A DNA stretch of 64,000 bases from IMG/VR virus record IMGVR_UViG_3300023174_000064, positions 1 to 64,000 of that record, one strand, 5' to 3'. Within the stretch, counting starts at the first letter, position 1, and every line of letters starts with the position of its first letter. The stretch comes from a virus. Positions 32,246-63,845 of this stretch are shown here, in pieces. A model generated the notes under the pieces. It saw only the letters and a program-made list of their open reading frames with translations, searched no databases and had not been told where the DNA came from. A program made the position numbers and the translations under genes.

Positions 32246-32273
32246 AATATACATCAAAAAAACAAAAAGTCAA
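32246..32273 (-). promoter_or_regulatory. Sigma70-type promoter for replication operon
   Basis: TTGACT 32268-32273, 16 bp, TATATT 32246-32251, ATG 6 nt later. Confidence 0.65.
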
Positions 32274-32470
32274 GGAGTTTCTAGAACATCTGGTGCAGTA
32301 AATCGTGGATTTGTATTAGGATCATAAACCCATCCGTTTGAAGTATCAAGTTCATTTTCGTTTAATTGAATCGGAATCCAACCTCTGTGTTGATATTGAT
32401 CACCAATACCGTCCCAAATTATAATATATTCTACAATATTTGTTTCTATATTTACTAGTGCCCAACGCAT
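32270..32470 (-). CDS. Small tail-fibre-associated protein
   Basis: GGAG SD; WALV...VEYIIIWDG...GWVYD..RFTAP, typical follower of Gly-rich fibre genes. Confidence 0.65.
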   Translation of the reverse strand: MRWALVNIETNIVEYIIIWDGIGDQYQHRGWIPIQLNENELDTSNGWVYDPNTNPRFTAPDVLETP

Positions 32471-32480
32471 ATGATGCTCC

Positions 32481-33407
32481 TTACGACAATACTGCTATCA
32501 CACAATAACCGTTTCCGCCTGCTCCACCGTTTCCACCGTTGTTTGAAACTTGACCACCACCACCGCCACCGCCACCACTACCTCGGTATCCTTTTCCACC
32601 GTTACCAGCATTAGAGATTGCTCCTCCACCACCACCTTGAGCACCAATCCCAACAGAAAATTTACCAAATATTTGTTGTGTGGAGTCTGATCCGTTAGTA
32701 CTAGCACCAGCAGCAGTGTAAATATTGGTAACTCTTGCAAATGCAGGAGAAACTATAGAAGGAGAACCAGAAAGTGTAGTAACAAATTGCGCATTTCCAC
32801 CACCTGTTGCAATACCGCCGGTACTTACTCCACCACCACCACAACCACCTCCACTGTATTGGTGTTGAAGTGATTGTGTTGTTACTGTGGCATTACTACC
32901 TGCAGTACCAGCAATTGCTGCTACTGCAATGGTGGCAGATTGGATATATCCTGTACCAGCAGATCCTGCTGTTCCTGATGCAGCACCACCACCACCACCA
33001 CCGCCTGCGGTAGACGAAATCATTAAAAATCCTGGAAGACCGTTAATTGTAATAAAAGATTGTTGTCCGGTACCGCCGTTATTGCCGATTGCGTTAGTAG
33101 TTGAACCAGTACCACTAGTTCCTCCTGCGCCTATAGTTACTTGCAAGATAGTTCCAGGTCCACCAAGATCTTCCACCCTAAAATCTTGTAAAGAAACGCT
33201 ACCGCCACCACCGCCACCACCTCCAGAAATAGCTGTAGACGCTCCTGTTTTTCCTCCTCCTCCACCACCACCGCCACCACCAACTAAAAATATACGAAGA
33301 ATTTTTGCTCCGGGTGGAATTACATAGGAACCAGAAGAATCAAACTCTTTGAGAGTTTCTGCAGTAGACGTTAAATTAGGAGAAAATCCAAAAACACCTT
33401 GATTCAT
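32481..33407 (-). CDS. Glycine-rich virion (tail) protein
   Basis: F.SSGSY.IP.G...VGGGGGGG...GAGGNGYCVI glycine-rich domain. Confidence 0.8.
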   Translation of the reverse strand: MNQGVFGFSPNLTSTAETLKEFDSSGSYVIPPGAKILRIFLVGGGGGGGGGGKTGASTAISGGGGGGGGSVSLQDFRVEDLGGPGTILQVTIGAGGTSGTGSTTNAIGNNGGTGQQSFITINGLPGFLMISSTAGGGGGGGAASGTAGSAGTGYIQSATIAVAAIAGTAGSNATVTTQSLQHQYSGGGCGGGGVSTGGIATGGGNAQFVTTLSGSPSIVSPAFARVTNIYTAAGASTNGSDSTQQIFGKFSVGIGAQGGGGGAISNAGNGGKGYRGSGGGGGGGGQVSNNGGNGGAGGNGYCVIAVLS

Positions 33408-33829: not shown

Positions 33830-33844
33830 ATATTCTCCTATTTA

Positions 33845-34291
33845 TTATATAATTCCGATACTGTAAAGATATAAATTTAATCCTGGAAGTAATACTGAAC
33901 CGGTTGTTCCTTGTACTGAACTTACACCAATAACATCACCAGTAGATCCGTTAAACGATGCTACTCCTGTTACTGCTCCGGTAGATCCGTTGAAACTAGC
34001 CACGTAACTGTTAAAAGTAACAGCACCAGTAGATCCGTTAAAACTTTGAACACCTGTGTTTGTAAATGTAATACCTTTACTACCTGCAGACACACTTATT
34101 CCAGTGCTAGCGTATGCAGTTAATGTGCCTGTTAATCCGTTAAACGATGCCACACCAGTAACATCACCTGTTAATCCGTTAAACGAACTTACTGCTATAG
34201 GTATACTTGCAGAATCACTAATAACAGTGGTTGCTGTAATACCTACTGCAAGACCGGAAACTGCTACGAATGGTTGTATGGTATCTGGCAT
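33845..34291 (-). CDS. Short tail-fibre-like protein with V-x-S-F-N-G-x-T-G repeats
   Basis: Six VxSxNGxTG-type repeats; AGGAG SD. Confidence 0.75.
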   Translation of the reverse strand: MPDTIQPFVAVSGLAVGITATTVISDSASIPIAVSSFNGLTGDVTGVASFNGLTGTLTAYASTGISVSAGSKGITFTNTGVQSFNGSTGAVTFNSYVASFNGSTGAVTGVASFNGSTGDVIGVSSVQGTTGSVLLPGLNLYLYSIGII

Positions 34292-34315
34292 TTTATCTCC
34301 TAGTCATTACCCGTT

Positions 34316-37300
34316 TTATTGAACACGCACAGTGGTTGTGAATACGGTGCTGTTGGCGGAAAGTGGTGTGGCACGAATCAACAAGTTTTTTGGAAAACCA
34401 CTCAAAATTGTACTATAAGACGAAACAGGGCCGGTTGCTCCTGTGCGAATCAAGCCGTATTGCGTGTTTACGGTATTGGTTCCGTCCTGCACCACCAACA
34501 TCTTCAACATTTCAGTTTTGTTCAACACGGTATCACGAGCAGAAATTGTGACCTCAAACGCAGGATAGCCCATTACTGGTGGTATTTGACTATTGTCGTA
34601 AACCGAATCAATCGTGGCAATAGTTTGATTGGCTGTGGTAGCCGTTGTGGTGGTTCGGTAAGTTTGAACAAACGAATAGGTGTCTGCAAACGATGGAGCC
34701 GATACTTGATTAAGGAAACTTCCGGTGGTGATTATTCCGTTAGGTGCCCTTAGTCTAACTGTTTGTGTGGTGTCATTAACACTAATGTATGTGCCGTTAT
34801 TGAGGAAATCGCTATCACCCTCAAAACCGTAATCTCCAATAGTTGTTAAATTTCCATTATTATTTATTGCTACTACTGTTCCGGTATACGGATACAAACC
34901 GTCTGTGTATTGAGTTACCGCACTTAAATTGGTGCTGTATATGTCTGTGGCAGTCAAGTTTCCAAATGTTGCACCACGTGTCACATACAGAGTGGATGCG
35001 GTGATTCCTGCGGTGAAACGGGTCAGAGACGAGAATATTCCGCCTGCTGAAGAGATACCGGCATTTGCTGACAGTAAACGGGTAAAGGTAGCCGTTACTC
35101 CTGTTAGCGATCCGTTGAGTGTTATGCCACCCGCAGCACTAAGACCAGCAGTAAAGTTTTGTTGAGCAGTAAATGTATTTGCTACACTGGTTGTTACTCC
35201 TGTAACTGCTCCTGTTAAACCATTAAAACTGGACACGTATGAGTTAAAGGTAACAGCACCAGTTGAACCGTTCCAACTTTGTACACCAGTATTTGTAAAA
35301 GTAATTCCATTACCACCTGCCGCAATACTTACTCCGGTAGACGCCAACAGACTGAGAGCTCCTGTGAGGCCATTAACAGAGTTTACACCAGAAATAGCAC
35401 CAGTGGCACCGTTGAATGTGGAAACACCTGTAACCGCACCGGTAAGGCCGTTTACAGAATTCACACCAGAAACAGCACCAGTAGCACCGTTGAATGTGGC
35501 AACACCTGTAACTGCACCAGTAGAACCGTTCCAACTTTGTACACCAGTATTTGTTATAGTAGGATTAGTTGTTCCGGTTATGGATATACCTGTACCAGCA
35601 TTAATAGCAGTCACTCCAGTAACTGCTCCTGTTAAACCATTAAAACTGGACACGTATGAGTTAAAGGTAACAGCACCAGTTGAACCGTTCCAACTTTGTA
35701 CACCAGTATTAGTGAATGTAATTCCTTTACCACCTGCCGCAATACTTACTCCGGTAGATGCCAACAGGCTGAGAGCTCCTGTAAGGCCGTTTACAGAATT
35801 CACACCAGAAACAGCTCCAGTAAGGCCGTTGAATGAATTAACTATATTAGAAGCGTAAATGTTTGCAAAAGTTACTCCACCTGTTACTGATAGGTTATTA
35901 ATAAAAATGCCATTTGTAATACCTCGAATACGACCACCATTTAATGATGATATTGTACCAGTATCATCAAATGTCCAAACAGCACCAGATACTCCGATTC
36001 CAACTACATCATTATCAACAGAAACAAACGAATTCAAATTATTACTAACTAGTTCAGCATAACTAAAAGCACCGGTTGGGGCTTTTAGATCTATACCATA
36101 ACCTGTTTCAAAAACATCACTTATTATTGCACCATTTGGTAGCAATACGCTTCCTGTGGCTCCAAGACTAAGTACAGAAGCTCCATTGATTAGCCTATCT
36201 ACATTTACATTTCCTGTTGCGCCATTAACTGAAGACACGCCAGTATTGATTAAAGTTATTTCTTTACCACCAGCAACCACACTGATTCCAGTACCACCAA
36301 AGAATGTTAATGCTCCGGTTAATCCGTTTGCAGAGTTTAAACCAGAGATTGTTCCGGTAGCACCATTGAAGGAATTAACCAAAGGAAGCGTGGTAACAGC
36401 AGAGTTGACCCACAATCCCTGTGTGCTGTCGTAACGCAGAATTTGATTGTTTGCAGGAGTTGTAACAGCAACATCACCCAAGTCATCCAAATTCAATACG
36501 GTTGATGCTCCACCACCGCCTGTGGTGTTTCGGAAGAAACCACCGGGAACAATACGGCAGTCACCAGTAGAAGACGCATTGGAACCGCCGCCACGCACAA
36601 TAAGCCATCCCAAGAACACACCGTTGTATCGTGTAATGTCTGCTTCCGCAAATGTTTCCAGTAGAATGTTGTTTGCGGCAACAGTATCTGTTGAGTAGGA
36701 CGCTGTGCCGTAGTAGATGTATAGCGCATTGTTTAGTCCCGGAATCTTGTAGACTCGCTGTATAGACCAGTTGTTGTTGCTGATGTTTCCAAGAGTTCCG
36801 CTGCCGTTATCGTAATTTCCAAAATTAACGGTAGTGCGGACAACCGGATCTGTTCTGTAAGTACCATCAGCATTTCTGTACAGGTAGAATAGTTGTTGCA
36901 CAGGCACAGAAGAACTGTCTGTGACAAGACTTGGATTGTTGACATCGACATCCATGTTTGCGCCCAAAGCAAACGCAGTACCCGTGGTGTGCTGTATTTG
37001 ACCTGTGGTTCCGTATCCACTCAGCACATAACCGTCTATTTTGAGTGCACCGAAGTAACGAATAAATGTTTCGTATTGTGCGCTTGAAGCGTAGGCTACG
37101 ATTGGGTGGTAGTGAACTCGGTTCACATAAGCCCGTGATTGGTGAACCGCATTACCAATCACCACGCTGTTCAGGTATTGGGTTTGGGTAAAATTGCTAG
37201 ACGACTGTTGTAGATTTCCTGATGAATCAATACGGAAGAAAGTAAAGTCGGATGATGTCATTCCTGCAAGGGTAACACCTGTCTTGGCAGTCCATGTTAC

Positions 37301-38602
37301 GGTTTGCAGAGAGGGTGCAGGATACCCTCCTGTGGCAGCGTTTACCGTGGCAATGATTCCTGCTCCTGCGGAAACATCCACTGCTGCTGTATTTCCTGCA
37401 TTGATTGTAAGGACACCACCGTACAGAAGTCCTGATTGAATTTCTTCAAGAATACGATCACCATTCACTCCCTTAATAAGATCAGCATCCAATCCTGAAC
37501 CTGCACCGTCATTTCCTGCGTGCCATGCGGTGTAACCCGCAATGGTTACTCGACCATTACCAAATGTGGCTCCTGACGCACTAATACCTGCGTTGAATGT
37601 ATTGAGTGCGGTGAATATATTGGCAACAGAAGTGGTTACGCCAGTGACAGCTCCTGTAAAACCGTTGAATGATGTTACGTAATCACCAACATTACCACCA
37701 GACACAGCAACATCAACCTGTTTGCCTTTTCTGGTAACAGTAATGTTGTCACCAACAAAGTTAATATCGTTAACCGACTTGATTACTCTGGCACGATCTT
37801 TATAGATGCCGACTGCACCACCACCAATCGAGCCTGTATTCAGCCACTGAAAATTCTGTGCTACTGTTTGTGCGTCCAGTTTGGTTTTTACCAGACTGGT
37901 AAGTTCTTGTTTAAATTTAGATCCATCAAAAGAAAGCTCACCTTCTTCCAGTACTAACGGATAGTTGGCAGAAATAATATTAGACTCACCGGGATCGCCT
38001 TTTGGTCCTTGAGGACCTTCAGGACCTTGTGGACCTATAGGACCCAGTAATCCTTGAGGACCAGGTTCTCCCTTGGCACCCGGAATACCTTTTGGACCTT
38101 GCGGACCAACAGGACCGATTTCACCTTCTGGGCCTTCTGGACCTTGAACGCCTTGTGGACCTTCAGGACCTACCTCTCCTTTAGGACCTCTGACACCAAT
38201 AGGACCGGGAACACCTTGTGGACCTATTTCACCTGGAACACCTTGAGGACCGATAGGGCCTTGAATGCCTTGTGGACCCATAGGACCTTCTGGGCCTTGT
38301 GGTCCAATAGGACCTTCTGGGCCTATGTCTCCTTGAACACCCTGTTCGCCTTTATCACCCGGCCAGCCAGTCTCTCCAGTATCACCCTTTTCACCTTTTA
38401 ATCCTTGTGGGCCTTGAGGACCGGGTTCGCCTTGAGGACCAGCCCATCCGTCTTCACCTGCGGGTCCTTGGGGGCCTGCTGGACCTTGAGGACCTCGTGG
38501 CCCAACAGGACCTCTCAGATCCTGTGTTGATTGTATTTCACTTTGCGGAGAAACCACAGGGGTTGGTTTATCCAAATTAAAGTATTGCTTAAACTTGTCC
38601 AT
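34316..38602 (-). CDS. Long tail fibre: N-terminal collagen, V-x-S-x-N-G-x-T-G repeats
   Basis: Long G-P-X collagen tract (about 37990-38515), many VSSFNGLTGAV repeats; CTAAATA 6 nt before ATG. Confidence 0.85.
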   Translation of the reverse strand: MDKFKQYFNLDKPTPVVSPQSEIQSTQDLRGPVGPRGPQGPAGPQGPAGEDGWAGPQGEPGPQGPQGLKGEKGDTGETGWPGDKGEQGVQGDIGPEGPIGPQGPEGPMGPQGIQGPIGPQGVPGEIGPQGVPGPIGVRGPKGEVGPEGPQGVQGPEGPEGEIGPVGPQGPKGIPGAKGEPGPQGLLGPIGPQGPEGPQGPKGDPGESNIISANYPLVLEEGELSFDGSKFKQELTSLVKTKLDAQTVAQNFQWLNTGSIGGGAVGIYKDRARVIKSVNDINFVGDNITVTRKGKQVDVAVSGGNVGDYVTSFNGFTGAVTGVTTSVANIFTALNTFNAGISASGATFGNGRVTIAGYTAWHAGNDGAGSGLDADLIKGVNGDRILEEIQSGLLYGGVLTINAGNTAAVDVSAGAGIIATVNAATGGYPAPSLQTVTWTAKTGVTLAGMTSSDFTFFRIDSSGNLQQSSSNFTQTQYLNSVVIGNAVHQSRAYVNRVHYHPIVAYASSAQYETFIRYFGALKIDGYVLSGYGTTGQIQHTTGTAFALGANMDVDVNNPSLVTDSSSVPVQQLFYLYRNADGTYRTDPVVRTTVNFGNYDNGSGTLGNISNNNWSIQRVYKIPGLNNALYIYYGTASYSTDTVAANNILLETFAEADITRYNGVFLGWLIVRGGGSNASSTGDCRIVPGGFFRNTTGGGGASTVLNLDDLGDVAVTTPANNQILRYDSTQGLWVNSAVTTLPLVNSFNGATGTISGLNSANGLTGALTFFGGTGISVVAGGKEITLINTGVSSVNGATGNVNVDRLINGASVLSLGATGSVLLPNGAIISDVFETGYGIDLKAPTGAFSYAELVSNNLNSFVSVDNDVVGIGVSGAVWTFDDTGTISSLNGGRIRGITNGIFINNLSVTGGVTFANIYASNIVNSFNGLTGAVSGVNSVNGLTGALSLLASTGVSIAAGGKGITFTNTGVQSWNGSTGAVTFNSYVSSFNGLTGAVTGVTAINAGTGISITGTTNPTITNTGVQSWNGSTGAVTGVATFNGATGAVSGVNSVNGLTGAVTGVSTFNGATGAISGVNSVNGLTGALSLLASTGVSIAAGGNGITFTNTGVQSWNGSTGAVTFNSYVSSFNGLTGAVTGVTTSVANTFTAQQNFTAGLSAAGGITLNGSLTGVTATFTRLLSANAGISSAGGIFSSLTRFTAGITASTLYVTRGATFGNLTATDIYSTNLSAVTQYTDGLYPYTGTVVAINNNGNLTTIGDYGFEGDSDFLNNGTYISVNDTTQTVRLRAPNGIITTGSFLNQVSAPSFADTYSFVQTYRTTTTATTANQTIATIDSVYDNSQIPPVMGYPAFEVTISARDTVLNKTEMLKMLVVQDGTNTVNTQYGLIRTGATGPVSSYSTILSGFPKNLLIRATPLSANSTVFTTTVRVQ
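35200..35830 (-). repeat. Recent in-frame duplication inside tail fibre (417-bp offset)
   Basis: About 90 bp identical at 35202-35293 and 35619-35710, similarity extends further. Confidence 0.85.
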
Positions 38603-38655
38603 TGTAAATATTTAGAGTATAATTTAAATGGTTCCGGTAATTACAATGTAATTGT

Positions 38656-40365
38656 TCATAAACTTAAAGTATCAACAAAAACTAAACCACCCAAACCAGC
38701 ACCAACTATTGGTCCCGTAGGAATATAAACTTTAACATCTTCTGTTGTAATAAACGGACTGGATATTAAATTATACACAAAAGGAGCAGTATTAGTAGGG
38801 TTGGTTTGTGATATTAAAGTATTTCCTGCGTATACAGACATAGTTTGGTTCCATGAAGGATAATCAAGGGTATCACCAATCAAAACACGAACAGATTCTA
38901 CTAAAACTCTTTGACCATACGAAGAGAATGTGTGTGTTGCTCCAGATAAACCTGGAGCATTTATAAATCCATTTGCATTTTTTGTATTTTTATTTCTATC
39001 TAAACCGCCCATTCCTCCAACATAACGACCACCAGTCTGATATTCTCCACGTAAATAAATATTTTCTATGCCTTTACAATTTTGAAATATTACAGGAGGC
39101 CATTGATAATAACTTTGAGATCCAGTGACCCATTGAATATTTGCACTGGGAGCCGAAGCCAAATTCTTACAAATCATTCCGCAATTATTATAATTTCCTA
39201 ATGCGTTTTGAGCTTTAATTTTAATTTTAGCTTGTTGATTTGGTGTTTCTCCCCATTGACCTCCATCCAATTCTACAATATAATTATCTCCTCGTAAATC
39301 AAAAGGATATACATCAGATTTTGATTCCCCACCTGCTATTCCACAGTTAACAAACTTTACGTAAGCTCCACCAGTTAATTCTATAACTTTACTGGTTCCA
39401 GCAAGGTTTCCTTTAGGTTCGTATTCCCATTTAGTATTAGTAACTAAATATTGGGCAACTGCACCAACAGAATCATTAGATATTTTAAGGAAAGTTCCTG
39501 GCATAATTACTGTACCGGAATCTACGTGTAAATACTCATAACCTTTAATATCAAAAGCAGCATAAGTAACTCCGTACCAAGAACAATCCACGAATCGATT
39601 GACTAAAGCTTGCGTATTTCTAGACCAAACAACAGTGTTAGCACCATTAAAATAAGATCCGGAAACAACATTAGTGTCTTCATTTATATCACAAGTATAC
39701 TTAAGAATAGTATTAAAACCATAAGTACTTATTCTATTAATGTATAATCGTCTTCCACCACCACCACCATTTAAAGTTATACAATTTCTTTGTGTGTTGG
39801 TATTACCACTTAAATCTTGAAATGCCAAGTCATGAAATTCTAAAGTGTCGTAAGGACCTGCAAAAAATACTGTGCTATAATTAGATTTTGTGGTGGTTAT
39901 AACAGAAACATCAGAACCATCACCAGCAAATTTCACTCCAAGAGCAGACGCTAAATTTACTGAGCAAGTAATTCCAGTAATTCCTGTGGTATTACATGTA
40001 TTTAATGCTGTTGGTAAATTTAATTCTCGATTTAATAAATATTTACCACGCGGAATATAAATAGTTCCCGTTCTTGCTGGAACAGATGGAGACGCAGAAC
40101 ATATACCAGTAGGAACTGTAAATCTTAAAAAATCATATGCGTTTTGAAATGCTAAACTGTCATCAGTAACACCATCACCAACAGCACCAAAATCTCTAAC
40201 ATTGCAAAAATCACGTAATTTATTTTCTACTGTTCTATTTACTCCATTTGTGGAAAAAGTATTACCAAATCCGTAAGTATAACCAATACTACTAATTATT
40301 TGATTGGTTTTATCAAACCAAGTTTCAAACGTATCTGTTCCGGTTAATCCTGTTATTCTTGGCAT
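38656..40365 (-). CDS. Tailspike-like right-handed beta-helix (pectate-lyase-3-like) protein
   Basis: NVRDFGAVGDGVTDDSLAFQNA, IYIPRGKY. Confidence 0.85.
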   Translation of the reverse strand: MPRITGLTGTDTFETWFDKTNQIISSIGYTYGFGNTFSTNGVNRTVENKLRDFCNVRDFGAVGDGVTDDSLAFQNAYDFLRFTVPTGICSASPSVPARTGTIYIPRGKYLLNRELNLPTALNTCNTTGITGITCSVNLASALGVKFAGDGSDVSVITTTKSNYSTVFFAGPYDTLEFHDLAFQDLSGNTNTQRNCITLNGGGGGRRLYINRISTYGFNTILKYTCDINEDTNVVSGSYFNGANTVVWSRNTQALVNRFVDCSWYGVTYAAFDIKGYEYLHVDSGTVIMPGTFLKISNDSVGAVAQYLVTNTKWEYEPKGNLAGTSKVIELTGGAYVKFVNCGIAGGESKSDVYPFDLRGDNYIVELDGGQWGETPNQQAKIKIKAQNALGNYNNCGMICKNLASAPSANIQWVTGSQSYYQWPPVIFQNCKGIENIYLRGEYQTGGRYVGGMGGLDRNKNTKNANGFINAPGLSGATHTFSSYGQRVLVESVRVLIGDTLDYPSWNQTMSVYAGNTLISQTNPTNTAPFVYNLISSPFITTEDVKVYIPTGPIVGAGLGGLVFVDTLSL

Positions 40366-40385
40366 AATAGTATTTATCGATCCTT

Positions 40386-41912: not shown

Positions 41913-41943
41913 GATTATATTTATTGTTATTTAAAATTAAACA

Positions 41944-52053: not shown

Positions 52054-52104
52054 TAAATTTCTTTTATTAAACTAGTAATTTTTTAAATTTACTCATAACT
52101 ATAA

Positions 52105-54394: not shown

Positions 54395-54406
54395 ATTTTT
54401 CCTTAA

Positions 54407-55063: not shown

Positions 55064-55076
55064 TTAAATTGATCCT

Positions 55077-55544: not shown

Positions 55545-55553
55545 GATATACTT

Positions 55554-56390
55554 TTATATATTATTTATTTGAGTTTTCCACCACGATATTTTTAATTTAT
55601 TAAAATTAAATTTTGTAGTTTGCATTTCTTCATATTTCTTATATAAAAACTCTTCAGTTATTTCTGACCATTGTTCAATAAAAACAATAGGAAGATCTTT
55701 AAAAAATCTATATGCTGGTTCGTATCGTACGATTGGAATCGTTTTAGAATACAAAGCTTCCCACAATCTATGTGTATCAACTCCATTACCACGAGGACAA
55801 AGAATAAATTTATGTTGTACCATATCATGCAAAAAAGATGATATATTAGTTTTATCATTATTATCGGAACAAATATTAAACCAAGTTTCGCCTTTTTTCT
55901 TTTTATCTAAAAATGCATGAAATAATGGTTGCCTTTCTGGTGGATGTGTTTCTTGTCTAAAATTAACATACAATAAATTATTTCTTTTATTATTTGTGTT
56001 TATTTTTTTAATATCATTTATTTTTGTGGTTATATTACAATACGAATTAGCTATTCCTAATGGGATAGGTATTATATCAGGATGTTCGTAAGTACTATTA
56101 ATTGCATACCAATTTGAAACATTTGATGGTTTGTATTTTACAATATCAGCGTTTATTGCAATATCAGAATTATGTGTTATAACATTTATATTTGTATATT
56201 GTTTATTATTATTTAAAATATAAAATAATTCATTTAAAGCGTATTCAGTTTTTGAAAATATTGTTATATTTGATTTTAAATTTAAATTTATACTTTGATC
56301 AAATGCTGTTGGTTTGTAATAATAATCACAAATAGATTTAAACGTCTCTCCCGAAACAAAATCATCTAATATATCATTTTTAAAATTCAT
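55554..56390 (-). CDS. Exostosin (GT47)-like glycosyltransferase
   Basis: THNSD, PIPLG, KFILCPRGNGVDTHRLWEAL. Confidence 0.8.
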   Translation of the reverse strand: MNFKNDILDDFVSGETFKSICDYYYKPTAFDQSINLNLKSNITIFSKTEYALNELFYILNNNKQYTNINVITHNSDIAINADIVKYKPSNVSNWYAINSTYEHPDIIPIPLGIANSYCNITTKINDIKKINTNNKRNNLLYVNFRQETHPPERQPLFHAFLDKKKKGETWFNICSDNNDKTNISSFLHDMVQHKFILCPRGNGVDTHRLWEALYSKTIPIVRYEPAYRFFKDLPIVFIEQWSEITEEFLYKKYEEMQTTKFNFNKLKISWWKTQINNI

Positions 56391-56400
56391 ATAATTTGTT

Positions 56401-57072
56401 TTAATATAAAATTAATTTCCAGCTATTCTTTAATTTAAAAATTCCATTAGCTTTTCTAATATTATGAAATATACCAGATTTTACATTTAAAGATTGGGCT
56501 AAATGTATAAAAGAGCTGTCTATACAATGTACTTCTTGTGCTTCTTCAATTAGGCCACACCAATCTAATAAACAATCAGTTAATGGTGTAACAAATATTT
56601 TTTTAATATTATTATCAATCTTTAAATTAAATTTACAATCAGATCCTTCATTATGAATAAGAATAAAAGGTTCATTTTTTAAACCTAATTTATTTTTAAT
56701 TGTGTTTTCTCTTTTTACATTTCTATTTATTTTAAAATATTTCCATCTAATATCAAATGGTATTCCATTAGTTTCATAGAAAGAAACATCCCAATCATCT
56801 CTTGTTTTATGAAACCCAATAGAAATTATTTTATTACATTGTTTAATTTCTGGTAAACTATAAACGTCTTGATCATTGTTGACTTCTAGAGGCACTATTT
56901 TTGACTCATCATCATACATTTTTTTTACTGTAAAAATATTATTTTTTTTTGTTGGTAGATATAAAATATCTGGTTTTATTTGTTCGTTTATAAATCGAAC
57001 GAGGCCATTGCAAATTAAATGATCCCCTAAACCTAAATGATGATGGAGTAAAATGATATTTTTATTGTCCAT
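56401..57072 (-). CDS. GT-B, GT9 (heptosyltransferase)-like glycosyltransferase
   Basis: LGLGDH N-terminal motif and CIDSSFIHLA, resembling GT9 GD.../DS...HLA. Confidence 0.55.
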   Translation of the reverse strand: MDNKNIILLHHHLGLGDHLICNGLVRFINEQIKPDILYLPTKKNNIFTVKKMYDDESKIVPLEVNNDQDVYSLPEIKQCNKIISIGFHKTRDDWDVSFYETNGIPFDIRWKYFKINRNVKRENTIKNKLGLKNEPFILIHNEGSDCKFNLKIDNNIKKIFVTPLTDCLLDWCGLIEEAQEVHCIDSSFIHLAQSLNVKSGIFHNIRKANGIFKLKNSWKLILY

Positions 57073-57793
57073 ACCATTTATTATTAAATAATTTTATAGA
57101 GTTTATTTGATCTTTTGGTATGCTAAGATGTGCCAATAAATCGTTTCTCACAAATATCATGTTACCGGTATGACACACGCAGCTATATCCTTTATTGATT
57201 CCTACTTTTAAAGAATCCATAAAACTATAACCTTTAGATTTATTATCTTGTTCTGCTGGAGCTAAACCACTATTAATCTCTATTATTACAATTTTAGGGG
57301 ACAGTTTATGTTCTTCCCAAATTTCATGATCATAAGAATCTATGTCTATATTTAAAATATCATAATTTGATGAAAATTGTTTAACTTGAGCTAAGGATTC
57401 GTCTAATGTTTTTATTTCTGCATTAAAATAAAATATATCACAATTTTCATGCATCGCTTTACAACCAGCATAACCTGCATCAACTTTAGCTTTATCTGAT
57501 ATTGCAGTAAAATGATTTAAAGCTATTACATTTGGATATACTTGTGGTAGATCTTGTAGTGATAGGTATTTTGGTTCACATGCCCCACCAACTAAGGAAG
57601 GCTCAATCATAACAGCATGACATCCTTGATTAATAAGATGCCGTACGTTACTGTATGCGATACCATCGTATGCACCAACATCTACAACCCACATATCAGG
57701 AATATTTAATCCTAATTCCTTGATTAGTTGTTCTAAGATTCCGTCTTCACCATTTTGACTGTATTTATTTTTTATAAAAGTATAATAATGCAT
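57062..57793 (-). CDS. FkbM-like methyltransferase
   Basis: YSQNGEDGI, VDVGAYDG..SN, NIDIDS.D, TGNMIFVR. Confidence 0.8.
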   Translation of the reverse strand: MHYYTFIKNKYSQNGEDGILEQLIKELGLNIPDMWVVDVGAYDGIAYSNVRHLINQGCHAVMIEPSLVGGACEPKYLSLQDLPQVYPNVIALNHFTAISDKAKVDAGYAGCKAMHENCDIFYFNAEIKTLDESLAQVKQFSSNYDILNIDIDSYDHEIWEEHKLSPKIVIIEINSGLAPAEQDNKSKGYSFMDSLKVGINKGYSCVCHTGNMIFVRNDLLAHLSIPKDQINSIKLFNNKWYGQ

Positions 57794-58509
57794 TATATTA
57801 TCCACATATTTTCTGATTTAAACCACTCTATTTTTTGTTGAGTTCCTACACAAAAATTAGCATGAATTATTGTTTGTCCTAATCTTTCTTTTGGTCCATT
57901 ATTTGAAAAATATAAATGTCCATTTGTTGCAAATGTAGTTTCAAGTGTATTTAATTTTATATCACCTCTTGCTAAAATATGATTTAAAATTGCTTGATCA
58001 TGCCATTCACCAGAATCTGTTTTTATCTGTGCTAAATTATTTGCTATTTGTATAGCTTCTTGAAATAGTTGTTTTATTGTATTATTGTTTTTTAATAACA
58101 TTACTCCAGCACACCACCTTGATCCAACCGGTCTATCAGTTTGGCATATCATATCATGAGTATCGTTTTCAATTTGTTTTAATTTTTCTGTTGGGTCTTT
58201 TGCAAAAAATACATCAGAATCAATAAAAAATATATTTTCATTTATTTCATTTAAAGTGTCTAATATGCACTTCAATTTAATAAACATTATTAATTTAAAT
58301 TCTTGTGTTCCATAATCCCAATAATTTGATTTAAATTTATAAGACGTTTTTACAGTTACATTTTTTATATTTTTTTCTATAAAAAAATTTTCACTTTCAT
58401 CATCAAGACAAAACATAATCATTTCTTCGTCTGTAAATTTTCGAAGAGATAATATCATGTTGTATGACAATTCTAAAGAACCATTATTTGTAAAGGATAC
58501 ATATTTCAT
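57793..58509 (-). CDS. Nucleotide-diphospho-sugar transferase (GT77-like)
   Basis: FIDSDVFF..DP, CAG, HDQAILN, IHANF..G...K. Confidence 0.8.
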   Translation of the reverse strand: MKYVSFTNNGSLELSYNMILSLRKFTDEEMIMFCLDDESENFFIEKNIKNVTVKTSYKFKSNYWDYGTQEFKLIMFIKLKCILDTLNEINENIFFIDSDVFFAKDPTEKLKQIENDTHDMICQTDRPVGSRWCAGVMLLKNNNTIKQLFQEAIQIANNLAQIKTDSGEWHDQAILNHILARGDIKLNTLETTFATNGHLYFSNNGPKERLGQTIIHANFCVGTQQKIEWFKSENMWII

Positions 58510-58511
58510 AA

Positions 58512-59342
58512 TTAAGAACACTCGTTGAATATATTTATATACTTTTGTTTATCTATTTCAGTGATATATCTTTGTTTTCCAATATATTCATTATCATGAA
58601 ATATACCACAAGACGAACAACAATTTAAATGACAATGACCTTTACCATTCTCACCAAACCAGTGTGGATATTTTATTGGATCATTTTCTATACCACTATG
58701 CCATTCTGGAAATTTAATATTCCACCAACCTTGTCCTCTTAATCGTGGAATAGGAAATGGGTGTTTTATTTCATTTCTGTACATGTTGCCAAACCAATCA
58801 TCATGAACATAAGCTTTATCAATTATTCTTGGATAAATTTCTGATCGTAAAAATTTTTGATCTATTCCGTGATTATTATCGATTTCTTTTCTGGGATATT
58901 CTTGTATTAGATCCATCATTTCCGTTATTACGCCATTTCTGCATCCCCATGCGCCACCACAAATAGGCCAACCGTGTTGACAACAATCTCTTAGAATGTG
59001 AAAATCTTTATCACTATTTAACCATTCGTCTACTGCTGCTTTGTCGCGTATTGATAATCTAGAATCTGTATCTCTAGAAATCATAACATCCACGCTTGGA
59101 TCTGATGCTGGATAAAATCTCCAAAACATACCATTCCAGCTAACATCTTCATCCATCATAAACACTTCTGTATTTTTTCTGCCAGTTAATTCTTTTATTG
59201 CTATTTTTGGAACTGTTGGTGCAACATAATAACGACAAGTCCACCCTTCCCATTCTTTTTCTGCTATATCGGCATTTAAAATACCACCCATAATATAAAA
59301 TGGATTTTTACCCCACATAGAAAATGATATTACTTTTTTCAT
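58512..59342 (-). CDS. GT-A-like protein (KKVISFS.WG family)
   Basis: KKVISFSMWG, GMFWRF, SRDTDSR, FHILRD, GGAWG, DQ.FL. Confidence 0.7.
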   Translation of the reverse strand: MKKVISFSMWGKNPFYIMGGILNADIAEKEWEGWTCRYYVAPTVPKIAIKELTGRKNTEVFMMDEDVSWNGMFWRFYPASDPSVDVMISRDTDSRLSIRDKAAVDEWLNSDKDFHILRDCCQHGWPICGGAWGCRNGVITEMMDLIQEYPRKEIDNNHGIDQKFLRSEIYPRIIDKAYVHDDWFGNMYRNEIKHPFPIPRLRGQGWWNIKFPEWHSGIENDPIKYPHWFGENGKGHCHLNCCSSCGIFHDNEYIGKQRYITEIDKQKYINIFNECS

Positions 59343-60181
59343 TGATTTACTCTTTTTAAAATTTGATGACATACTGCATCTAATGTAAAATATTCAGGAT
59401 AAACTTGTTTTATCCGGTTTAACATGTTGTTGTGCTTTTCGTCTGAAATAGACTGTAATATGTTTTTTAAATTGCATATTTGGTTTTGTTTTATTATTAC
59501 ACAAAATTCAGACCAATCCAATTCATCAGACCAAGGAAGGTAGTGATCGTCACTTACATATACAGGAACTGCTCCTATTTGCATTGTTTCATATAATCTA
59601 AAACTACTTTTACCGTATCCTCTGGGGCATAATACAAATTTACTTCTGTTTGTTACATCTATAAAATGGTTTAGTTTATCTTCCGATACTGTTATATCCC
59701 AACCACCTTGTGTGAATAAAAAATCACTGTCTTGTTTGAACGTATTATATAATTCGTTTCGTATTCCATGCGTGGCAGAACCAACAAAAGAACAAAATAT
59801 GTCTTTTGTTTTTGGTTCTGGAACACGAATAGCAGAGCATATTAATGGAATAGGAATACAATTTGGTCCAGAATAATTTCCACCAGCAGAAAATACTTTG
59901 GTGTTTGGTGGTAATTTTTGAGCTGGAGCATCATCGTGTTGACTAACAGTATAGTAAGACAATTCAGGATTTAATGAATTTAAAAATGCTTGTAAGATAT
60001 TCCAAGGCATTCCGTTATTATAATAAGAAGTCCATAAAACTGGAATAAAAAATTTCTTAGTGTTTGGTTGATTTTTTATCAAAAACTCCATAAAATAATC
60101 TTCCAAATATAATCCTTGATGGTAAGGAGGATATGTTGGATAATTTGGTTTAGGTGCAAAAAAATCCAAAGTTATGTTCAT
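59339..60181 (-). CDS. Exostosin (GT47)-like glycosyltransferase
   Basis: SFVGS.TH.IR, KFVLCPRGYG.SSFRLYE...GAVPV. Confidence 0.85.
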   Translation of the reverse strand: MNITLDFFAPKPNYPTYPPYHQGLYLEDYFMEFLIKNQPNTKKFFIPVLWTSYYNNGMPWNILQAFLNSLNPELSYYTVSQHDDAPAQKLPPNTKVFSAGGNYSGPNCIPIPLICSAIRVPEPKTKDIFCSFVGSATHGIRNELYNTFKQDSDFLFTQGGWDITVSEDKLNHFIDVTNRSKFVLCPRGYGKSSFRLYETMQIGAVPVYVSDDHYLPWSDELDWSEFCVIIKQNQICNLKNILQSISDEKHNNMLNRIKQVYPEYFTLDAVCHQILKRVNQ

Positions 60182-60876
60182 GAACAAGTTCCTTTTTTAA
60201 ATTGTTCTCTATGATATGGATTTAATTGATAATCATTTCCGTTTTCATCAATACCAAAAGGTTCACCTATAAAATAATTATGTGGATCTTGTTCTCTTGA
60301 CATAGAAATAGGATGACCGCCAAGACGAGTACAGGTATCATGTATGTACACGTTTGTTTCTGGATTTAATAATGGACAAACATAAGACCATAAAAATTGT
60401 TGATCTACATTCTTGATATCGTTAAATATTGGTGTGGTTTCATAATGTTTTATCATTTCATTTATTGGTAATTTTACATTTTTAGCTCCCCAAGCTCCAC
60501 CCAACATAGGAACATCGTGACAGGGATGATCTCGTATTATATGAAACGATCTATTACTATTCAACCATTCATTTACGGCATATACTTCTCTTGGTCCGAT
60601 TCTAGAATCTGTATCTCTTGATAAAAATATGTTAATATCTTCTTGTAGTGGTAAGAATCTATAAGTCATTATATGTGAAGATCCTGGTCTATCTAAAACA
60701 ACAACTTCAGAATGTTTTTTTAATAAATTAATTTTTGATTCGTTAAAATCATTAGAAACATAAAATCTACAAATAAATCCTGGATAATAACGAGCAACCA
60801 GATCTATATTTTTCAATGCACCTTTAAAATAAAGATCATTTTCTCCCCAAAGACAATAACTTACAATATTTTTCAT
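60178..60876 (-). CDS. GT-A-like protein, paralog of 58512-59342
   Basis: KNIVSYCLWG, SRDTDSR, FHIIRDHP.H, GGAWG, DQQFL. Confidence 0.7.
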   Translation of the reverse strand: MKNIVSYCLWGENDLYFKGALKNIDLVARYYPGFICRFYVSNDFNESKINLLKKHSEVVVLDRPGSSHIMTYRFLPLQEDINIFLSRDTDSRIGPREVYAVNEWLNSNRSFHIIRDHPCHDVPMLGGAWGAKNVKLPINEMIKHYETTPIFNDIKNVDQQFLWSYVCPLLNPETNVYIHDTCTRLGGHPISMSREQDPHNYFIGEPFGIDENGNDYQLNPYHREQFKKGTCS

Positions 60877-62372
60877 CGTTGTGTTTCGGTTATTTCTGGA
60901 TCGTAAAGATAATGATATAATATCTGTTCGATATTTGATTCTGTTTTAATTAATCCAGATTTAAACAATTTATCAGAATAATCACTATCTTCTGATAAAT
61001 TTATTTCTGGAAACATTATTTCTCTTGCCATACTAGTTTTTACTGGATTTAAATGATTTATAGGTCTGTATTGAATACCATCTTTTCTAAAATTACCACC
61101 ATTTTTATTGGCATGGCTGAATTGCATAACTAGTTGATTTTGAATATAATAATTACCATAAAATCCAACACAATCCACACCTTTTTCTAATTCTGGTAAA
61201 ATAGCAGTAAAATAATTATGACTAACCATATCATCATCGTCTATAAAGCAAACATATTTTCCTCTTGCTGTCATCAATACTTCATTTCTTTTTTCGCCTA
61301 CTTTTTTTTGTTTTTTATCTTTATTAACAAATATTTCTATTTTATGTGCTTGATCTGCAGGAATTATTTGTTTTAAATGATTTAAAAGTCTTGTTAAAAA
61401 ATGCTCTCTTCCTTCTATAGTAAGAATACCAACAGTCAATAATGTATCAGATACATTTATTTTTTGTTTGATTGTTTGTTCAACTCGTTTAGAAAAACTC
61501 TGTGCGTATTCTTTTGCCTTTTCAAAATTGTCCTCTATTTTAAATTTTAATTTTTTGTAAGTGGTTTCATCAATATTATTAACAATATGGACAAGCTCTT
61601 CTATTGAATTAAAAGTAAATAAACCACCAGTATCAAAATATTCTCCAATATTAGGACAACCAAAATATATTGGGATTGTTTTTGTGATTAAACAATCTAT
61701 TAATTTTTCAGAAAAATAATTTGGTTGAATACAGTTTTCCACAATAATAGAAAATTGTGAATAAAATAAATTATCCTTTTCTCCATTAGGAATATGACCA
61801 TCATGAAGAGTATCAGAGAATCCATTTACGTTAGTTGGAGATCTAGCACTAGACCAAAATACCGTAGGTTTATTTAAATTATTTTTATTGTTCCAGATGT
61901 CTCGACGCATCTCATAGCCAATCATACCACGATGTCCTGTAGCCATGAAGGATATTTGATATTTTTTATCTTTGTATTTTTCTTCTAAACCTTCTTCATA
62001 AACGCCTAAAGAATCTGGATGTTGTAATTCTATTTTATTTAACCAAGTACCACCGTAAAGAAATAAAGTAGAATTATCACAACTATTAAGTATTTCTTCA
62101 TCTGTACACATAATAAGATCATATTCGGATGCATGATCTATGATATCATTGATTCGTTCTTTATTTGGCGAACAAACAGGTTCGCTGGTTACAATTAAAA
62201 CTTTATATGCATTTAAATTTTTAAAAGGAACTTTATATCCTTGAGTGTTTGGAAAACGATATAAAGGAAATTTATTATTACCAAAACGAGCAGTATGTAT
62301 TTCTACTGGTCGATCAAAATCCATTAGATCCGAGCCTAACAGATAATCTGCATTAAAAATTGTTGGTTTCAT
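60873..62372 (-). CDS. GT10-like + GT2 fusion glycosyltransferase
   Basis: FSIIVEN..NYFSEKLIDC...TIPIYFG (GT10) then GEKRN...YVCFIDDDD (GT2). Confidence 0.8.
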   Translation of the reverse strand: MKPTIFNADYLLGSDLMDFDRPVEIHTARFGNNKFPLYRFPNTQGYKVPFKNLNAYKVLIVTSEPVCSPNKERINDIIDHASEYDLIMCTDEEILNSCDNSTLFLYGGTWLNKIELQHPDSLGVYEEGLEEKYKDKKYQISFMATGHRGMIGYEMRRDIWNNKNNLNKPTVFWSSARSPTNVNGFSDTLHDGHIPNGEKDNLFYSQFSIIVENCIQPNYFSEKLIDCLITKTIPIYFGCPNIGEYFDTGGLFTFNSIEELVHIVNNIDETTYKKLKFKIEDNFEKAKEYAQSFSKRVEQTIKQKINVSDTLLTVGILTIEGREHFLTRLLNHLKQIIPADQAHKIEIFVNKDKKQKKVGEKRNEVLMTARGKYVCFIDDDDMVSHNYFTAILPELEKGVDCVGFYGNYYIQNQLVMQFSHANKNGGNFRKDGIQYRPINHLNPVKTSMAREIMFPEINLSEDSDYSDKLFKSGLIKTESNIEQILYHYLYDPEITETQR

Positions 62373-63231
62373 TATTAATCATCTCAAAAAGATCATCGTC
62401 TGCTAATTTTAATTTATTAAGAGCTTTGTAATTGTGCTCTATCGCTTTGCTTTTATTTATGTAGGTTTCTTCGTTTAAAGAATCAAATATTTTTTTTTCT
62501 TTATCTAATTCTAACCAAATAATTCCTTCTGGATCAAAAATATCAGGAAGTTTTTTAGTTCCACAATATACAGGAATTGTTCCTGTAGCAAAACAGTCTG
62601 TTAATTTTTCTGTGTAATAAGAATCGTATATACCATTCTCAACAACTACACTAAACATATAATCCTTTAAACCATCAATTTTAGTGTTCCAAGGATTTCT
62701 AGGATCATTTACTGTTCTGCTGGTTCCATGAGCTCCTCCAAATACATCAAAACCACAATCTAATGCTATTCGAGCAATTTGATGCCGATATACGTGGCCT
62801 TCTGTTAGTTTTTTGGGAGAGCAAAACATAGAGCATTGTTTTTTCTTGGGATAAACACTCCATTTATCTTTTGGAATCCACGGATAATTGCTACCATTTT
62901 GGCAATAAACAAAATTTGGATGTAACTGTAGAAGAGCACTGTCACAAGTAAAAATTTTATTATAATAACTATTAAACAATACTTTATAATTGTTTATTAA
63001 AAAATCATAAACATTTGGAACTATAAATCTAGATTCGCATATCCAACCAAATCTTTTTTCTTTGGGTTTAGAAAAATCTGGATTTATTAACAGACCTAAA
63101 TCTAAATGAACATCACAAATACCTTCAGTGTTTGACCAATCGAACTTATTTGGTTTTATGTTTGAACAAGAAGAATATTGTGGTTCGAATGGTAAAGCAA
63201 TACCTTTTACTTTGTACCGGGACTCTGCCAT
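62353..63231 (-). CDS. GT10 (fucosyltransferase)-like glycosyltransferase
   Basis: YMFSVVVEN..YYTEKLTDCFATGTIPVY.G. Confidence 0.8.
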   Translation of the reverse strand: MAESRYKVKGIALPFEPQYSSCSNIKPNKFDWSNTEGICDVHLDLGLLINPDFSKPKEKRFGWICESRFIVPNVYDFLINNYKVLFNSYYNKIFTCDSALLQLHPNFVYCQNGSNYPWIPKDKWSVYPKKKQCSMFCSPKKLTEGHVYRHQIARIALDCGFDVFGGAHGTSRTVNDPRNPWNTKIDGLKDYMFSVVVENGIYDSYYTEKLTDCFATGTIPVYCGTKKLPDIFDPEGIIWLELDKEKKIFDSLNEETYINKSKAIEHNYKALNKLKLADDDLFEMINNETNNF

Positions 63232-63845
63232 GCTATTAAATCCTCACTCATTCCTAATTTTTTAAGTGCTTCTTTTTTAGAATCTACGTCAGCCAATCCC
63301 ATTACTATTACACTAGCATCGTTTTCTTGACCGGGCCAAACACAATATTCTGGTCCTATAAATTTTATTTTAAATCCATCTTTTTGATAAAAAGAATGCA
63401 AAATGCCAATAAGAGCTTCATGATCAAACCATTGACCATTATTTGCCATTTGCCTTGCCATAAATGTCCAATGTTGAAGAAATTCTAATACTTTAGAATT
63501 AAAATCCAAATAAATTGGAGATGCTTTTGCTGCTTGTAATTTATTTGTTGAGCAAGACACAGCTACATCAGTATTACCTACAAACTGGTCAAATACATCT
63601 AATGATTTGCGAACATCAGAATCAATATCTAACCAAACAACTGGTTTTTGTTTTTCTATTAATAATTGGTATATGAACTGAGGCTTACTTAGACAATTTT
63701 TTTGATATGTTCCTAATGATTGTTTTTTTCTAATATCATGAGGAATATTCAATTCTCTTAGTTGTTTTGTAAGACGATGAGAATGGTCACTATAATACGT
63801 TTTATTGTCTATATCACTAAAAAAAGAAATCACTTCGGTTTGCAT
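63207..63845 (-). CDS. GT-A fold DXD glycosyltransferase-like protein
   Basis: NCLSKPQFI, VVWLDIDS, FDHE; CTAAATA late promoter inside regA 3' end. Confidence 0.65.
   Translation of the reverse strand: MQTEVISFFSDIDNKTYYSDHSHRLTKQLRELNIPHDIRKKQSLGTYQKNCLSKPQFIYQLLIEKQKPVVWLDIDSDVRKSLDVFDQFVGNTDVAVSCSTNKLQAAKASPIYLDFNSKVLEFLQHWTFMARQMANNGQWFDHEALIGILHSFYQKDGFKIKFIGPEYCVWPGQENDASVIVMGLADVDSKKEALKKLGMSEDLIAWQSPGTK

Follow-up and report, generated by a model that had tools for sequence, protein, structure and literature searches.

A candidate sugar-attachment motif, Gly-(aliphatic)-Thr, on the tail fibres of a T4-like water phage

Enzymes that combine a glycosyltransferase domain with TPR repeats modify peptides and proteins in several bacterial systems. 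In Clostridioides difficile, SgtA, a roughly 360-aa enzyme with a GT-A domain followed by TPR repeats, is encoded immediately upstream of the gene of its substrate, the surface fibre protein BclA3; it adds O-GlcNAc to Thr of G-P-T triplets in vitro, and other enzymes extend this first O-linked sugar in vivo (PMC7157674). Similar Thr-ladder collagens, of BclA type, are found on Bacillus spores. SunS and ThuS (PDB 7msn and 7msk) are soluble S/O-glycosyltransferases with a GT-A and a helical TPR-like domain that glycosylate a ribosomal peptide, a glycocin precursor, in the cytoplasm; SunS modifies a Cys in one small bacteriocin precursor. Listeria GmaR and other GT2+TPR flagellin O-glycosyltransferases act in the cytoplasm on a surface filament protein before assembly; to our knowledge, no G-x-T rule has been reported for the flagellin sites. 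Among viruses, mycobacteriophages encode transferases that decorate their own structural proteins with O-linked glycans, which sit on C-terminal tails of capsid and tail-tube subunits, with no short sequon spread through the proteins (Freeman et al. 2023, cited in PMC12619734).

Here, we analyzed a stretch of 64,000 nucleotides (hereafter, the window; positions 1 to 64,000 of the IMG/VR record IMGVR_UViG_3300023174_000064) of an uncultured T4-like water phage, whose 146-kb record is estimated to be 80% complete. A preliminary description, made from the sequence alone, had proposed that the tripeptide G-[AVILFMYWC]-T (G-h-T) accumulates in exterior virion proteins encoded next to a cluster of sugar genes, and that a GT2-TPR enzyme primes O-glycosylation at its Thr. 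Features of the locus are listed in Table 1.

Table 1. Genes of the fibre module, the sugar island and an additional motif-rich gene (positions in the window; motif counts are observed G-h-T versus the number expected from shuffled sequences)
Positions	Strand	Product	G-h-T	Features
8291..8539	-	82-aa late-gene product, function unknown, possibly a small virion protein	4 vs 0.6 (p 0.001)	TATAAATA box directly upstream, at 8545-8552; no family match
33845..34291	-	148-aa protein built of the same repeat as the collagen-like fibre	4 vs 1.3	
34316..38602	-	Collagen-like tail fibre, 1428 aa	29 vs 9.7	Pfam Collagen, PHROG tail fibre; motifs outside the collagen part, mostly in 13-residue SFNGLTGAVTGVT-type repeats
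38656..40365	-	Tailspike-like beta-helix protein, 569 aa	7 vs 2.7	Pfam Pect-lyase_RHGA_epim, PHROG tail spike
40386..41912	-	Tailspike-like beta-helix protein, 508 aa	6 vs 2.0	Pfam Pect-lyase_RHGA_epim, PHROG tail spike
41944..48069	-	2041-aa multidomain outer protein (IPT/TIG and others)	35 vs 8.8 (z 9.2)	Pfam TIG; scattered, non-repeated motifs, each in a different context
48076..48327	-	83-aa protein of unknown function	0	No Pfam match
48340..48747	-	135-aa Ig-like protein, likely fibre anchor (T5 p132 / BppU-N-like), first gene of the fibre module	3 vs 0.5	AF2 model all-beta, pLDDT 86
48762..50006	-	GT2-TPR glycosyltransferase, 414 aa, SunS/ThuS/GmaR-like; proposed priming enzyme for Thr in G-h-T		Pfam Glycos_transf_2 plus TPR; AF2 model pLDDT 92.5
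50024..63845	-	Low-GC (26-32%) island of 17 soluble sugar genes upstream of GT2-TPR		Epimerase/dehydratase, Glf, GT32-like, GT92/GT2_4-like, Methyltransf_24, two FkbM-type methyltransferases, HldE-domain-II-like nucleotidyltransferase, two GT47-like, Nucleotid_trans GT, 499-aa GT2, GT10-like and four genes without a family (Pfam and NCBIfam)

The observed excess of the motif was confirmed, and our counts reproduced those given in the preliminary description. By contrast, gp43 contains none and the 639-aa putative NrdJ contains one (1.1 expected). Beyond the window, a 1284-aa and a 1342-aa protein are also enriched (24 versus 9.3 and 19 versus 4.9). When 12 outer virion proteins were pooled, 146 motifs were found against 43.7 expected (z 16), while the next of 400 X-h-Z patterns reached only z 4.5; G-h-S was enriched only 1.5-fold, and T-h-T, S-h-T and N-h-T were not enriched. 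The middle residue is I, L, V or C at 4-8 times and A at 2.5 times the expectation; polar residues are not enriched in this position, and G-P-T is depleted. The excess survived shuffling within 20- or 40-residue windows (z 15.5) and dipeptide-preserving shuffles (146 versus 71, z 10.6). It is present in the coding frame only (146 versus 0-17 in the other frames), and codon use at the motif is ordinary. The excess acts at the protein level.

Two claims of the preliminary description had to be corrected. The motifs had been said not to lie in tandem repeats, but this is true for the 2041-aa and 1342-aa proteins only, since in three fibre proteins much of the count comes from the 13-residue repeat SFNGLTGAVTGVT, a structural fibre repeat. 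In addition, 12 glycosyltransferase-like genes had been claimed, of which Pfam supports eight; the three methyltransferases, the epimerase, Glf and the HldE-like gene were confirmed.

The enriched proteins have unrelated folds, and include an IPT-containing giant, beta-helix spikes, an RCC1-repeat protein, a gp10-like wedge protein and the Ig-like anchor. In contrast, the major head protein contains no motif, enzymes are not enriched, and head, portal, sheath, tube and gp6 orthologues show no excess (1.4x in phages with the GT2-TPR gene and 1.48x in phages without it). Thus, the glycan coat over the whole virion that had been suggested is not supported, and at most the fibres and the baseplate periphery would be coated.

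We next compared the fibre-like proteins, with collagen segments masked, of phages from one MCP family. Among carriers of the GT2-TPR gene the enrichment was 2.84x in the phage studied here, 3.03x in its close relatives, 2.25x in 69 further loci, and 2.63x, 2.81x, 2.24x and 2.19x in four genomes designated G005, G012 (complete, 50% GC), G014 and G016, respectively. Among phages without the gene it was 0.77x in G009 (a complete genome with terminal repeats and no GT2 gene at all), 1.19x in G006, and 1.37x in cyanophage S-CAM4 plus Flavobacterium phage immuto. This contrast of 2.2-3.0x with the gene and 0.8-1.4x without it supports a dependence of the excess on the enzyme. However, the genomes without the gene form one clade on the MCP tree, and gene presence and motif excess are therefore linked by a single evolutionary contrast plus outgroups. 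Covariation of sequon identity with the GT clade, which had been set as a test beforehand, was not seen: G-h-T remained the top motif in every GT2-TPR identity bin from 51 to 86%.

Conservation of the motif was examined as well. Motif Thr is more conserved than other Thr in every identity bin (0.60 versus 0.42, 0.74 versus 0.57, 0.83 versus 0.67 and 0.96 versus 0.83), and motifs private to one of two diverged homologues still exceed the composition expectation 1.6-1.7-fold. The orthologue of the 2041-aa protein, at 87% identity, keeps 31 of 35 motifs. In the anchor protein, G57 and T59 are at least 90% conserved in 42 homologues; Foldseek matched its predicted structure to DT57C and T5 baseplate chains and to BppU-N domain proteins.

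The best solved relatives of GT2-TPR by sequence are ThuS (7msk), GmaR (22ao; the second-best PDB sequence hit, matching over the N-terminal ~90 residues only) and SunS (7msn), all peptide or protein glycosyltransferases. A Foldseek search with the AF2 model placed SunS/ThuS first over the full length (about 400 columns, E 5e-16), with the next GT2 at 5e-7. The predicted structure has a GT-A catalytic domain followed by a helical TPR-like domain, with strands and helices in residues 4-163 and helices in residues 176-388; DADD at residues 89-92, which contains the DxD motif, and DTGSTD at residues 35-40 are invariant or nearly so. The only NCBIfam glycosyltransferase hit was the SunS family (TIGR04195), but the score, 47.3 bits, lies far below the curated equivalog cut-off of 350; the protein is thus related to this family but is not an orthologue of SunS. 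Its likeness to SgtA is drawn from domain architecture and gene position alone.

The enzyme is 76-86% identical in 21 relatives and 51-68% identical in more than 60 further viral contigs. The order of variable sugar genes, GT2-TPR, anchor protein and fibres is conserved down to 46% identity, with the anchor gene following GT2-TPR in nearly all relatives and the motif-rich anchor and fibre genes following it in this phage and in over 60 relatives. The fibres are hypervariable, and the content of the sugar island is almost entirely different even in relatives whose GT2-TPR is 76-86% identical. No island product has a hydrophobic 19-residue window above 1.3, and no priming phosphoglycosyl transferase, flippase, polymerase or ABC exporter was found by Pfam among the island genes, which are wholly cytoplasmic by this criterion.

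Support independent of phages comes from bacteria, where 36 of 80 loci with a 38-47% identical homologue, across several phyla, carry a (G-x-T)n collagen-like run within 6 kb, resembling the SgtA-BclA3 pair. Some phages with the gene also carry Thr-ladder collagens; in G005, 600 of 663 triplets are G-x-T. The collagen triplets of the phage studied here are of G-P-Q type with almost no G-x-T, and its conserved GT2-TPR would need another acceptor. Two more distant homologues give no support: in Tunturi_5 (37% identity) the only excess is in collagen G-A-T/G-P-T triplets, and on enterobacterial plasmids (36% identity) the gene sits beside an autotransporter with no G-x-T excess.

The interpretation put forward in the preliminary description is, in our view, partly supported. 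We consider it most likely, with a probability of about 0.55, that the phage O-glycosylates its own fibre and peripheral baseplate proteins in the host cytoplasm. In this view, GT2-TPR, encoded as the last gene before the fibre module, would transfer a first sugar to the Thr of G-(I/L/V/A/C)-T, a motif that would sit where a turn glycine opens a beta-strand, with the aliphatic residue buried and Thr facing out. Soluble transferases, methyltransferases and nucleotide-sugar enzymes of the island would then extend this sugar, and, since the island is swapped between relatives, the glycan would differ from phage to phage, like a serotype, while outer proteins would have accumulated and kept the motif. 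Our analysis shows the motif excess, its restriction to outer proteins and to the clade carrying the enzyme, the family and predicted fold of the enzyme, the conserved gene order and the lack of export genes. That Thr is modified, that GT2-TPR transfers sugar to G-x-T and acts as the primer, that the other enzymes extend a protein-linked glycan, and the nature and purpose of the glycan are inferred from sequence alone, without chemical evidence; possible roles are shielding of fibres from proteases or non-specific sticking, or tuning of host binding. Compared to SgtA-BclA3, where proven sites of this type are G-P-T or G-A-T in collagen-like chains, the putative acceptors here are scattered in globular beta domains and in a 13-residue fibre repeat, so that the local structure differs, and the system is viral, with a swappable 17-gene island. 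Compared to mycobacteriophages, the excess is in the fibres and not in the head and tube, and the host group and phage family differ. More tentatively, a large clade of aquatic T4-like phages may run a general, sequon-directed O-glycosylation system for its receptor-binding apparatus, with a conserved SunS/SgtA-like primer reading G-x-T, outer proteins evolving to gain and keep the sequon, and a hypervariable, horizontally swapped island giving each lineage its own fibre "glycotype", a viral counterpart of O-antigen or flagellin glycan diversity.

The strongest alternative, though unlikely, is that G-h-T is a favoured turn-to-strand junction and repeat unit of fibre modules that circulate by recombination within this clade and is read by nothing, with GT2-TPR and the island glycosylating only Thr-ladder collagens where present, or some other target. 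Indeed, in the model of the 135-aa protein all three motifs sit at a turn glycine, two opening a beta-strand and one leading into a loop, so that the motif looks like an ordinary beta-hairpin exit; the aliphatic middle residue fits a buried strand position, and both the contribution of the SFNGLTGAVTGVT repeat and the single clade-level contrast are compatible with this view. On the other hand, the same kinds of fold in phages without the gene show no excess, the excess spans unrelated folds and includes private motifs, the lack of enrichment of G-h-S, T-h-T, S-h-T and N-h-T is not what a generic strand-start preference predicts, and GT2-TPR is kept in this phage despite the absence of G-x-T collagen.

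Less likely still, the island makes or alters a non-protein glycan, either a host surface polysaccharide built on host lipid carriers or a sugar hypermodification of phage DNA, and is unrelated to the motif. Phage glycosyltransferases do modify host serotype and phage DNA (reviewed in PMC12619734), the island has low GC and is hypervariable like O-antigen loci, and peripheral-membrane transferases need no membrane segment of their own. However, the island lacks the membrane proteins of a Wzx/Wzy- or ABC-dependent polysaccharide locus, no thymidylate-synthase-like dCMP/dUMP hydroxymethylase (PF00303), as expected for T4-type DNA hydroxymethylpyrimidine glycosylation, was found in the 146-kb record, estimated to be 80% complete, the relatives of GT2-TPR act on peptides and proteins, and the fixed position ahead of the fibre module is left unexplained. 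That the motif is instead read or written by something else, such as a fibre-assembly chaperone or another Thr-modifying enzyme, is the least likely reading: although nothing computed here ties the motif chemically to sugar and several other genes of unknown function occur in genomes with GT2-TPR and not in the two without it, no kinase or other Thr-modifying family was seen among these clade-specific genes (several of which have no family assignment), and GT2-TPR is the one clade-specific enzyme with a known link to G-x-T.

Against a link between the enzyme and the motif, one distant T4-like contig (L032) has a fibre with 17 motifs versus 3.9 expected and no GT2-TPR on its 25%-complete fragment. 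The 83-aa protein encoded between the anchor and the 2041-aa protein is poorly conserved, being found in 2 of 21 relatives. The sugar island is followed by regA at 63848-64252.

The stretch analyzed is the first 64 kb of a 146-kb linear IMG/VR virus record that is estimated to be 80% complete. The virus is a T4-like myovirus, whose DNA polymerase is 47% identical to those of cyanomyoviruses, and the rest of the record encodes a gp23-type head protein, sheath, wedge proteins, regA, clamp and clamp loader. Megablast of the region found nothing, the 2041-aa protein has no match in isolated phages, and a gp6-based search for related loci retrieved only two contigs. The features considered here are collected in the table below.

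Positions of the features discussed (window coordinates unless another record is named)
Feature	Position	Strand	Remarks
High-GC start of the record	1-4000		56% GC against about 40% for the rest of the phage
ORFs without a Pfam family	676-3000, 3016-3627, 3713-4156		the 203-aa one has homologues in other phages that carry GT2-TPR
Late-promoter-type box TATAAATA	8545-8552		just upstream of the 82-aa gene
Late-promoter-type box TATAAATA	4228-4235		just upstream of a 99-aa gene
Late-promoter-type box TATAAATA	18935-18942		just upstream of the 475-aa collagen-like gene
Late-promoter-type box TATAAATA	58532-58539		inside the sugar island, before 57793-58521
Late-promoter-type box TATAAATA	51020-51027		inside the sugar island, before the epimerase
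Second collagen-like protein, 475 aa	18963-20390	plus	G-D-K type triplets
Fibre module	32-48 kb	minus
135-aa protein, predicted fibre anchor	48340-48747
GT2-TPR glycosyltransferase gene	48762-50006
Sugar island	48.8-63.8 kb		low GC (26-32%)
regA (translational repressor) and beyond	63848-64000, continuing in the genome to 65246		regA bounds the island
Fourth sugar-type methyltransferase (Methyltransf_24/TylF-like)	genome 64686-65246		just beyond the island, before the clamp-loader genes
1342-aa RCC1-repeat protein	genome 107330-111358 (7330-11358 of the fetched stretch L004)
Tandem GT2-TPR genes and 2335-aa protein	about 80.5-91.5 kb of contig G005
GT2-TPR homologue and autotransporter	Citrobacter plasmid NZ_CP056187.1, 2915-7191

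Genes were called and the tripeptide G-[AVILFMYWC]-T (G-h-T below) was counted in each protein against 2000 shuffles of the same protein. The counts of the preliminary description were reproduced: 35 vs 8.8 expected in the 2041-aa protein, 29 vs 9.7 in the 1428-aa fibre, 7 vs 2.7 and 6 vs 2.0 in the two tailspikes, 3 vs 0.5 in the 135-aa protein, 4 vs 0.6 in the 82-aa protein and 0 in gp43. Outside the window, four more baseplate-region or fibre-like proteins are enriched, while the head protein has no motif. Among all 400 X-hydrophobic-Z patterns in 12 outer proteins, G-h-T stands alone (146 vs 43.7, z 16); the runner-up has z 4.5, and G-h-S is only at 1.5x. The middle residue is I, L, V or C at 4-8x and A at 2.5x, and polar residues and Pro are not enriched. 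The 475-aa collagen-like protein is an outlier among the G/T-rich proteins, since it has 0 G-h-T despite its high Gly and Thr content. Thus, the motif excess that had been noticed from the sequence is real.

We next considered whether the excess could arise trivially. It survives shuffling within 20- or 40-residue windows as well as dipeptide-preserving shuffles, which rules out an artefact of overall or local composition. A DNA-level motif can also be rejected, since the pattern is seen only in the coding frame and codon use is ordinary; it is therefore a protein-level signal. Collagen G-X-Y triplets explain the signal in the fibre of Tunturi_5, which carries a distant GT2-TPR homologue, and the G-h-Q signal, but not that of the phage studied here, where the excess stays at 2.84x after collagen masking. 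One correction to the preliminary description is needed: in the 1428-, 1284- and 148-aa proteins, many copies belong to a 13-residue repeat, SFNGLTGAVTGVT, while in the 2041- and 1342-aa proteins every copy has a different context.

To determine whether the excess is simply a generic property of beta-rich fibre proteins, fibre and structural proteins of cyanophage S-CAM4 and Flavobacterium phage immuto were analyzed and gave 1.3x and 1.15x, respectively. We then took phages of the same head-protein family and asked which of them carry the GT2-TPR gene. Fibre-like proteins were defined beforehand by length and Gly/Thr content, and collagen-like runs were masked. As can be seen from the table below, all sets with the gene show a higher ratio than those without it, so that S-CAM4, immuto and the two genomes lacking the gene, G009 and G006, rule out the generic explanation.

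Observed/expected ratio of G-h-T in collagen-masked fibre-like proteins of phages with and without the GT2-TPR gene (labels beginning with G are individual genomes)
Group	Genome or set	Ratio
With GT2-TPR	this phage	2.84
With GT2-TPR	close relatives	3.03
With GT2-TPR	69 further loci	2.25
With GT2-TPR	G005	2.63
With GT2-TPR	G012 (complete, 50% GC)	2.81
With GT2-TPR	G014	2.24
With GT2-TPR	G016	2.19
Without	G009 (complete, terminal repeats, no GT2 gene)	0.77
Without	G006	1.19
Without	S-CAM4 plus immuto	1.37

On the head-protein tree, however, the genomes without the enzyme form one clade, and the association therefore amounts to one evolutionary contrast plus outgroups. Orthologues of core virion proteins show no difference between the two groups (1.4x and 1.48x). 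A shift of the sequon with the glycosyltransferase clade, which had been proposed as a test, was not seen, since G-h-T is the top motif in every bin of enzyme identity from 51 to 86%.

The product of the GT2-TPR gene matches Pfam GT2 and TPR. Its best solved relatives by sequence are ThuS, GmaR and SunS, all of which are peptide or protein glycosyltransferases, and a confident predicted structure (pLDDT 92.5) matches SunS and ThuS over the full length at E 5e-16, with the next GT2 at 5e-7. The only NCBIfam glycosyltransferase hit is the SunS family, far below its cut-off, and the protein is thus a relative, not an orthologue. The gene is 76-86% identical in 21 viral contigs and 51-68% identical in more than 60 others, out of at least 555 viral contigs with a relative; for two sets of close and distant homologues, the contexts examined provided gene order only. 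In nearly all of these 21 and more than 60 contigs, GT2-TPR is followed by a 134-155-aa protein and then by hypervariable, motif-rich fibre genes. The small protein is predicted to be an Ig-like sandwich resembling the T5/DT57C p132 collar protein and BppU N-domains and is likely a structural fibre anchor, a reading that was preferred over a cofactor of the enzyme. Its G57-x-T59 is at least 90% conserved in 42 homologues, and in the model each motif glycine sits in a turn and two of the three motifs open a strand.

Upstream of GT2-TPR, the sugar genes are almost completely different even between close relatives, and in sister clades they include aminotransferase, NeuB-like, TPP-enzyme and sulfotransferase-like genes. 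None of the island's products has a membrane segment, and no flippase, polymerase, exporter or priming phosphoglycosyl transferase is present. No thymidylate-synthase-type hydroxymethylase was found in the record, which argues against DNA glycosylation. The T4-type late-promoter box TATAAATA is not more frequent than chance overall (9 vs 6.2), and the few copies located right before genes are weak evidence for timing.

Independent evidence on what this enzyme family may act on comes from bacteria. SgtA, which resembles GT2-TPR in its described architecture, is a 358-aa enzyme with a GT-A domain and TPR repeats that is encoded just upstream of bclA3; it adds beta-O-GlcNAc to Thr of G-P-T collagen triplets in vitro, and the sugar is further extended in vivo (PMC7157674). 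We retrieved the 80 best bacterial loci for the phage enzyme family (38-47% identity), which come from Actinomycetota, several Proteobacteria classes, Myxococcota, Acidobacteriota and Bacteroidota. Thirty-six of them carry an uninterrupted (G-x-T)n collagen-like run, made of G-A-T/G-P-T triplets, within 6 kb of the homologue, in genomes of 44-72% GC. This looks like a widespread pairing of the SgtA-BclA3 type well beyond Firmicutes. Several phages with the enzyme also have such Thr-ladder collagens. G005 has two tandem GT2-TPR genes followed by a 2335-aa protein, which accounts for most of the genome's 663 collagen triplets, 600 of which are G-x-T. The collagen segments of the phage studied here are of the G-P-Q type, and if its well-conserved enzyme keeps the family's taste for G-x-T, the scattered motifs and the 13-residue repeat are the only candidates.

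The evolution of the motif was analyzed in 167 pairs of homologous fibre-like proteins. Motif Thr is more conserved than other Thr in every identity bin (0.60 vs 0.42, 0.74 vs 0.57, 0.83 vs 0.67 and 0.96 vs 0.83), and at 30-60% identity the motifs found in only one partner still exceed the whole composition-based expectation 1.6-1.7x. Though the pairs are not independent and alignment shifts could inflate the number of such private motifs, this suggests continuing gain and not only inheritance of old structural positions.

The proposal of the preliminary description, that the virion proteins are O-glycosylated at G-h-T by the products of the neighbouring genes, is partly supported. We estimate the probability of fibre O-glycosylation at G-h-T primed by GT2-TPR at about 0.55; while the motif excess and its distribution follow from the sequences, modification of the threonines and the priming role of GT2-TPR are inferred, as there is no chemical evidence. 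Since the head is unmarked, the "glycan coat" proposed for the virion overstates the case, and at most the fibres and the baseplate periphery would be decorated. The main alternative, a clade-specific structural building habit with the enzyme acting elsewhere, appears unlikely but remains possible, since the aliphatic middle residue and the depletion of G-P-T mean that the local structure is a strand start and not the collagen-type chain of proven sites. One distant T4-like contig has a motif-rich fibre and no enzyme on its 25%-complete fragment. Other glycan targets or other readers of the motif share the small remaining probability.

Protein glycosylation of phage particles is documented for mycobacteriophages only, and without a sequon, and G-x-T glycosylation is likewise known; what differs here is a scattered sequon on T4-like fibres paired with a swappable glycan island, and our literature searches found no description of this motif in phages or of such a pairing. 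If this reading holds, a very common group of freshwater and marine T4-like phages would carry sugar-coated, serotype-like fibres, which bears on host recognition, on protease and grazing resistance and on how fibre sequences should be interpreted. It would also supply a short, portable O-glycosylation tag with a soluble cytoplasmic enzyme, which is useful for glyco-engineering, and would link a widespread bacterial GT2-TPR family to (G-x-T)n collagen-like surface proteins well beyond Clostridioides and Bacillus.

Two more distant homologues of the enzyme do not support the reading. In Tunturi_5, only collagen triplets are enriched. On conjugative enterobacterial plasmids, represented by the Citrobacter plasmid, a 36%-identical homologue sits directly downstream of a 990-aa autotransporter with no G-x-T excess, and this may be a different adhesin-glycosyltransferase pair. 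Finally, the 1342-aa RCC1-repeat protein carries Cys-rich runs such as GCTGCTGTC and GCTGCSGCTG, which account for most of the 8-fold excess of G-C-T.
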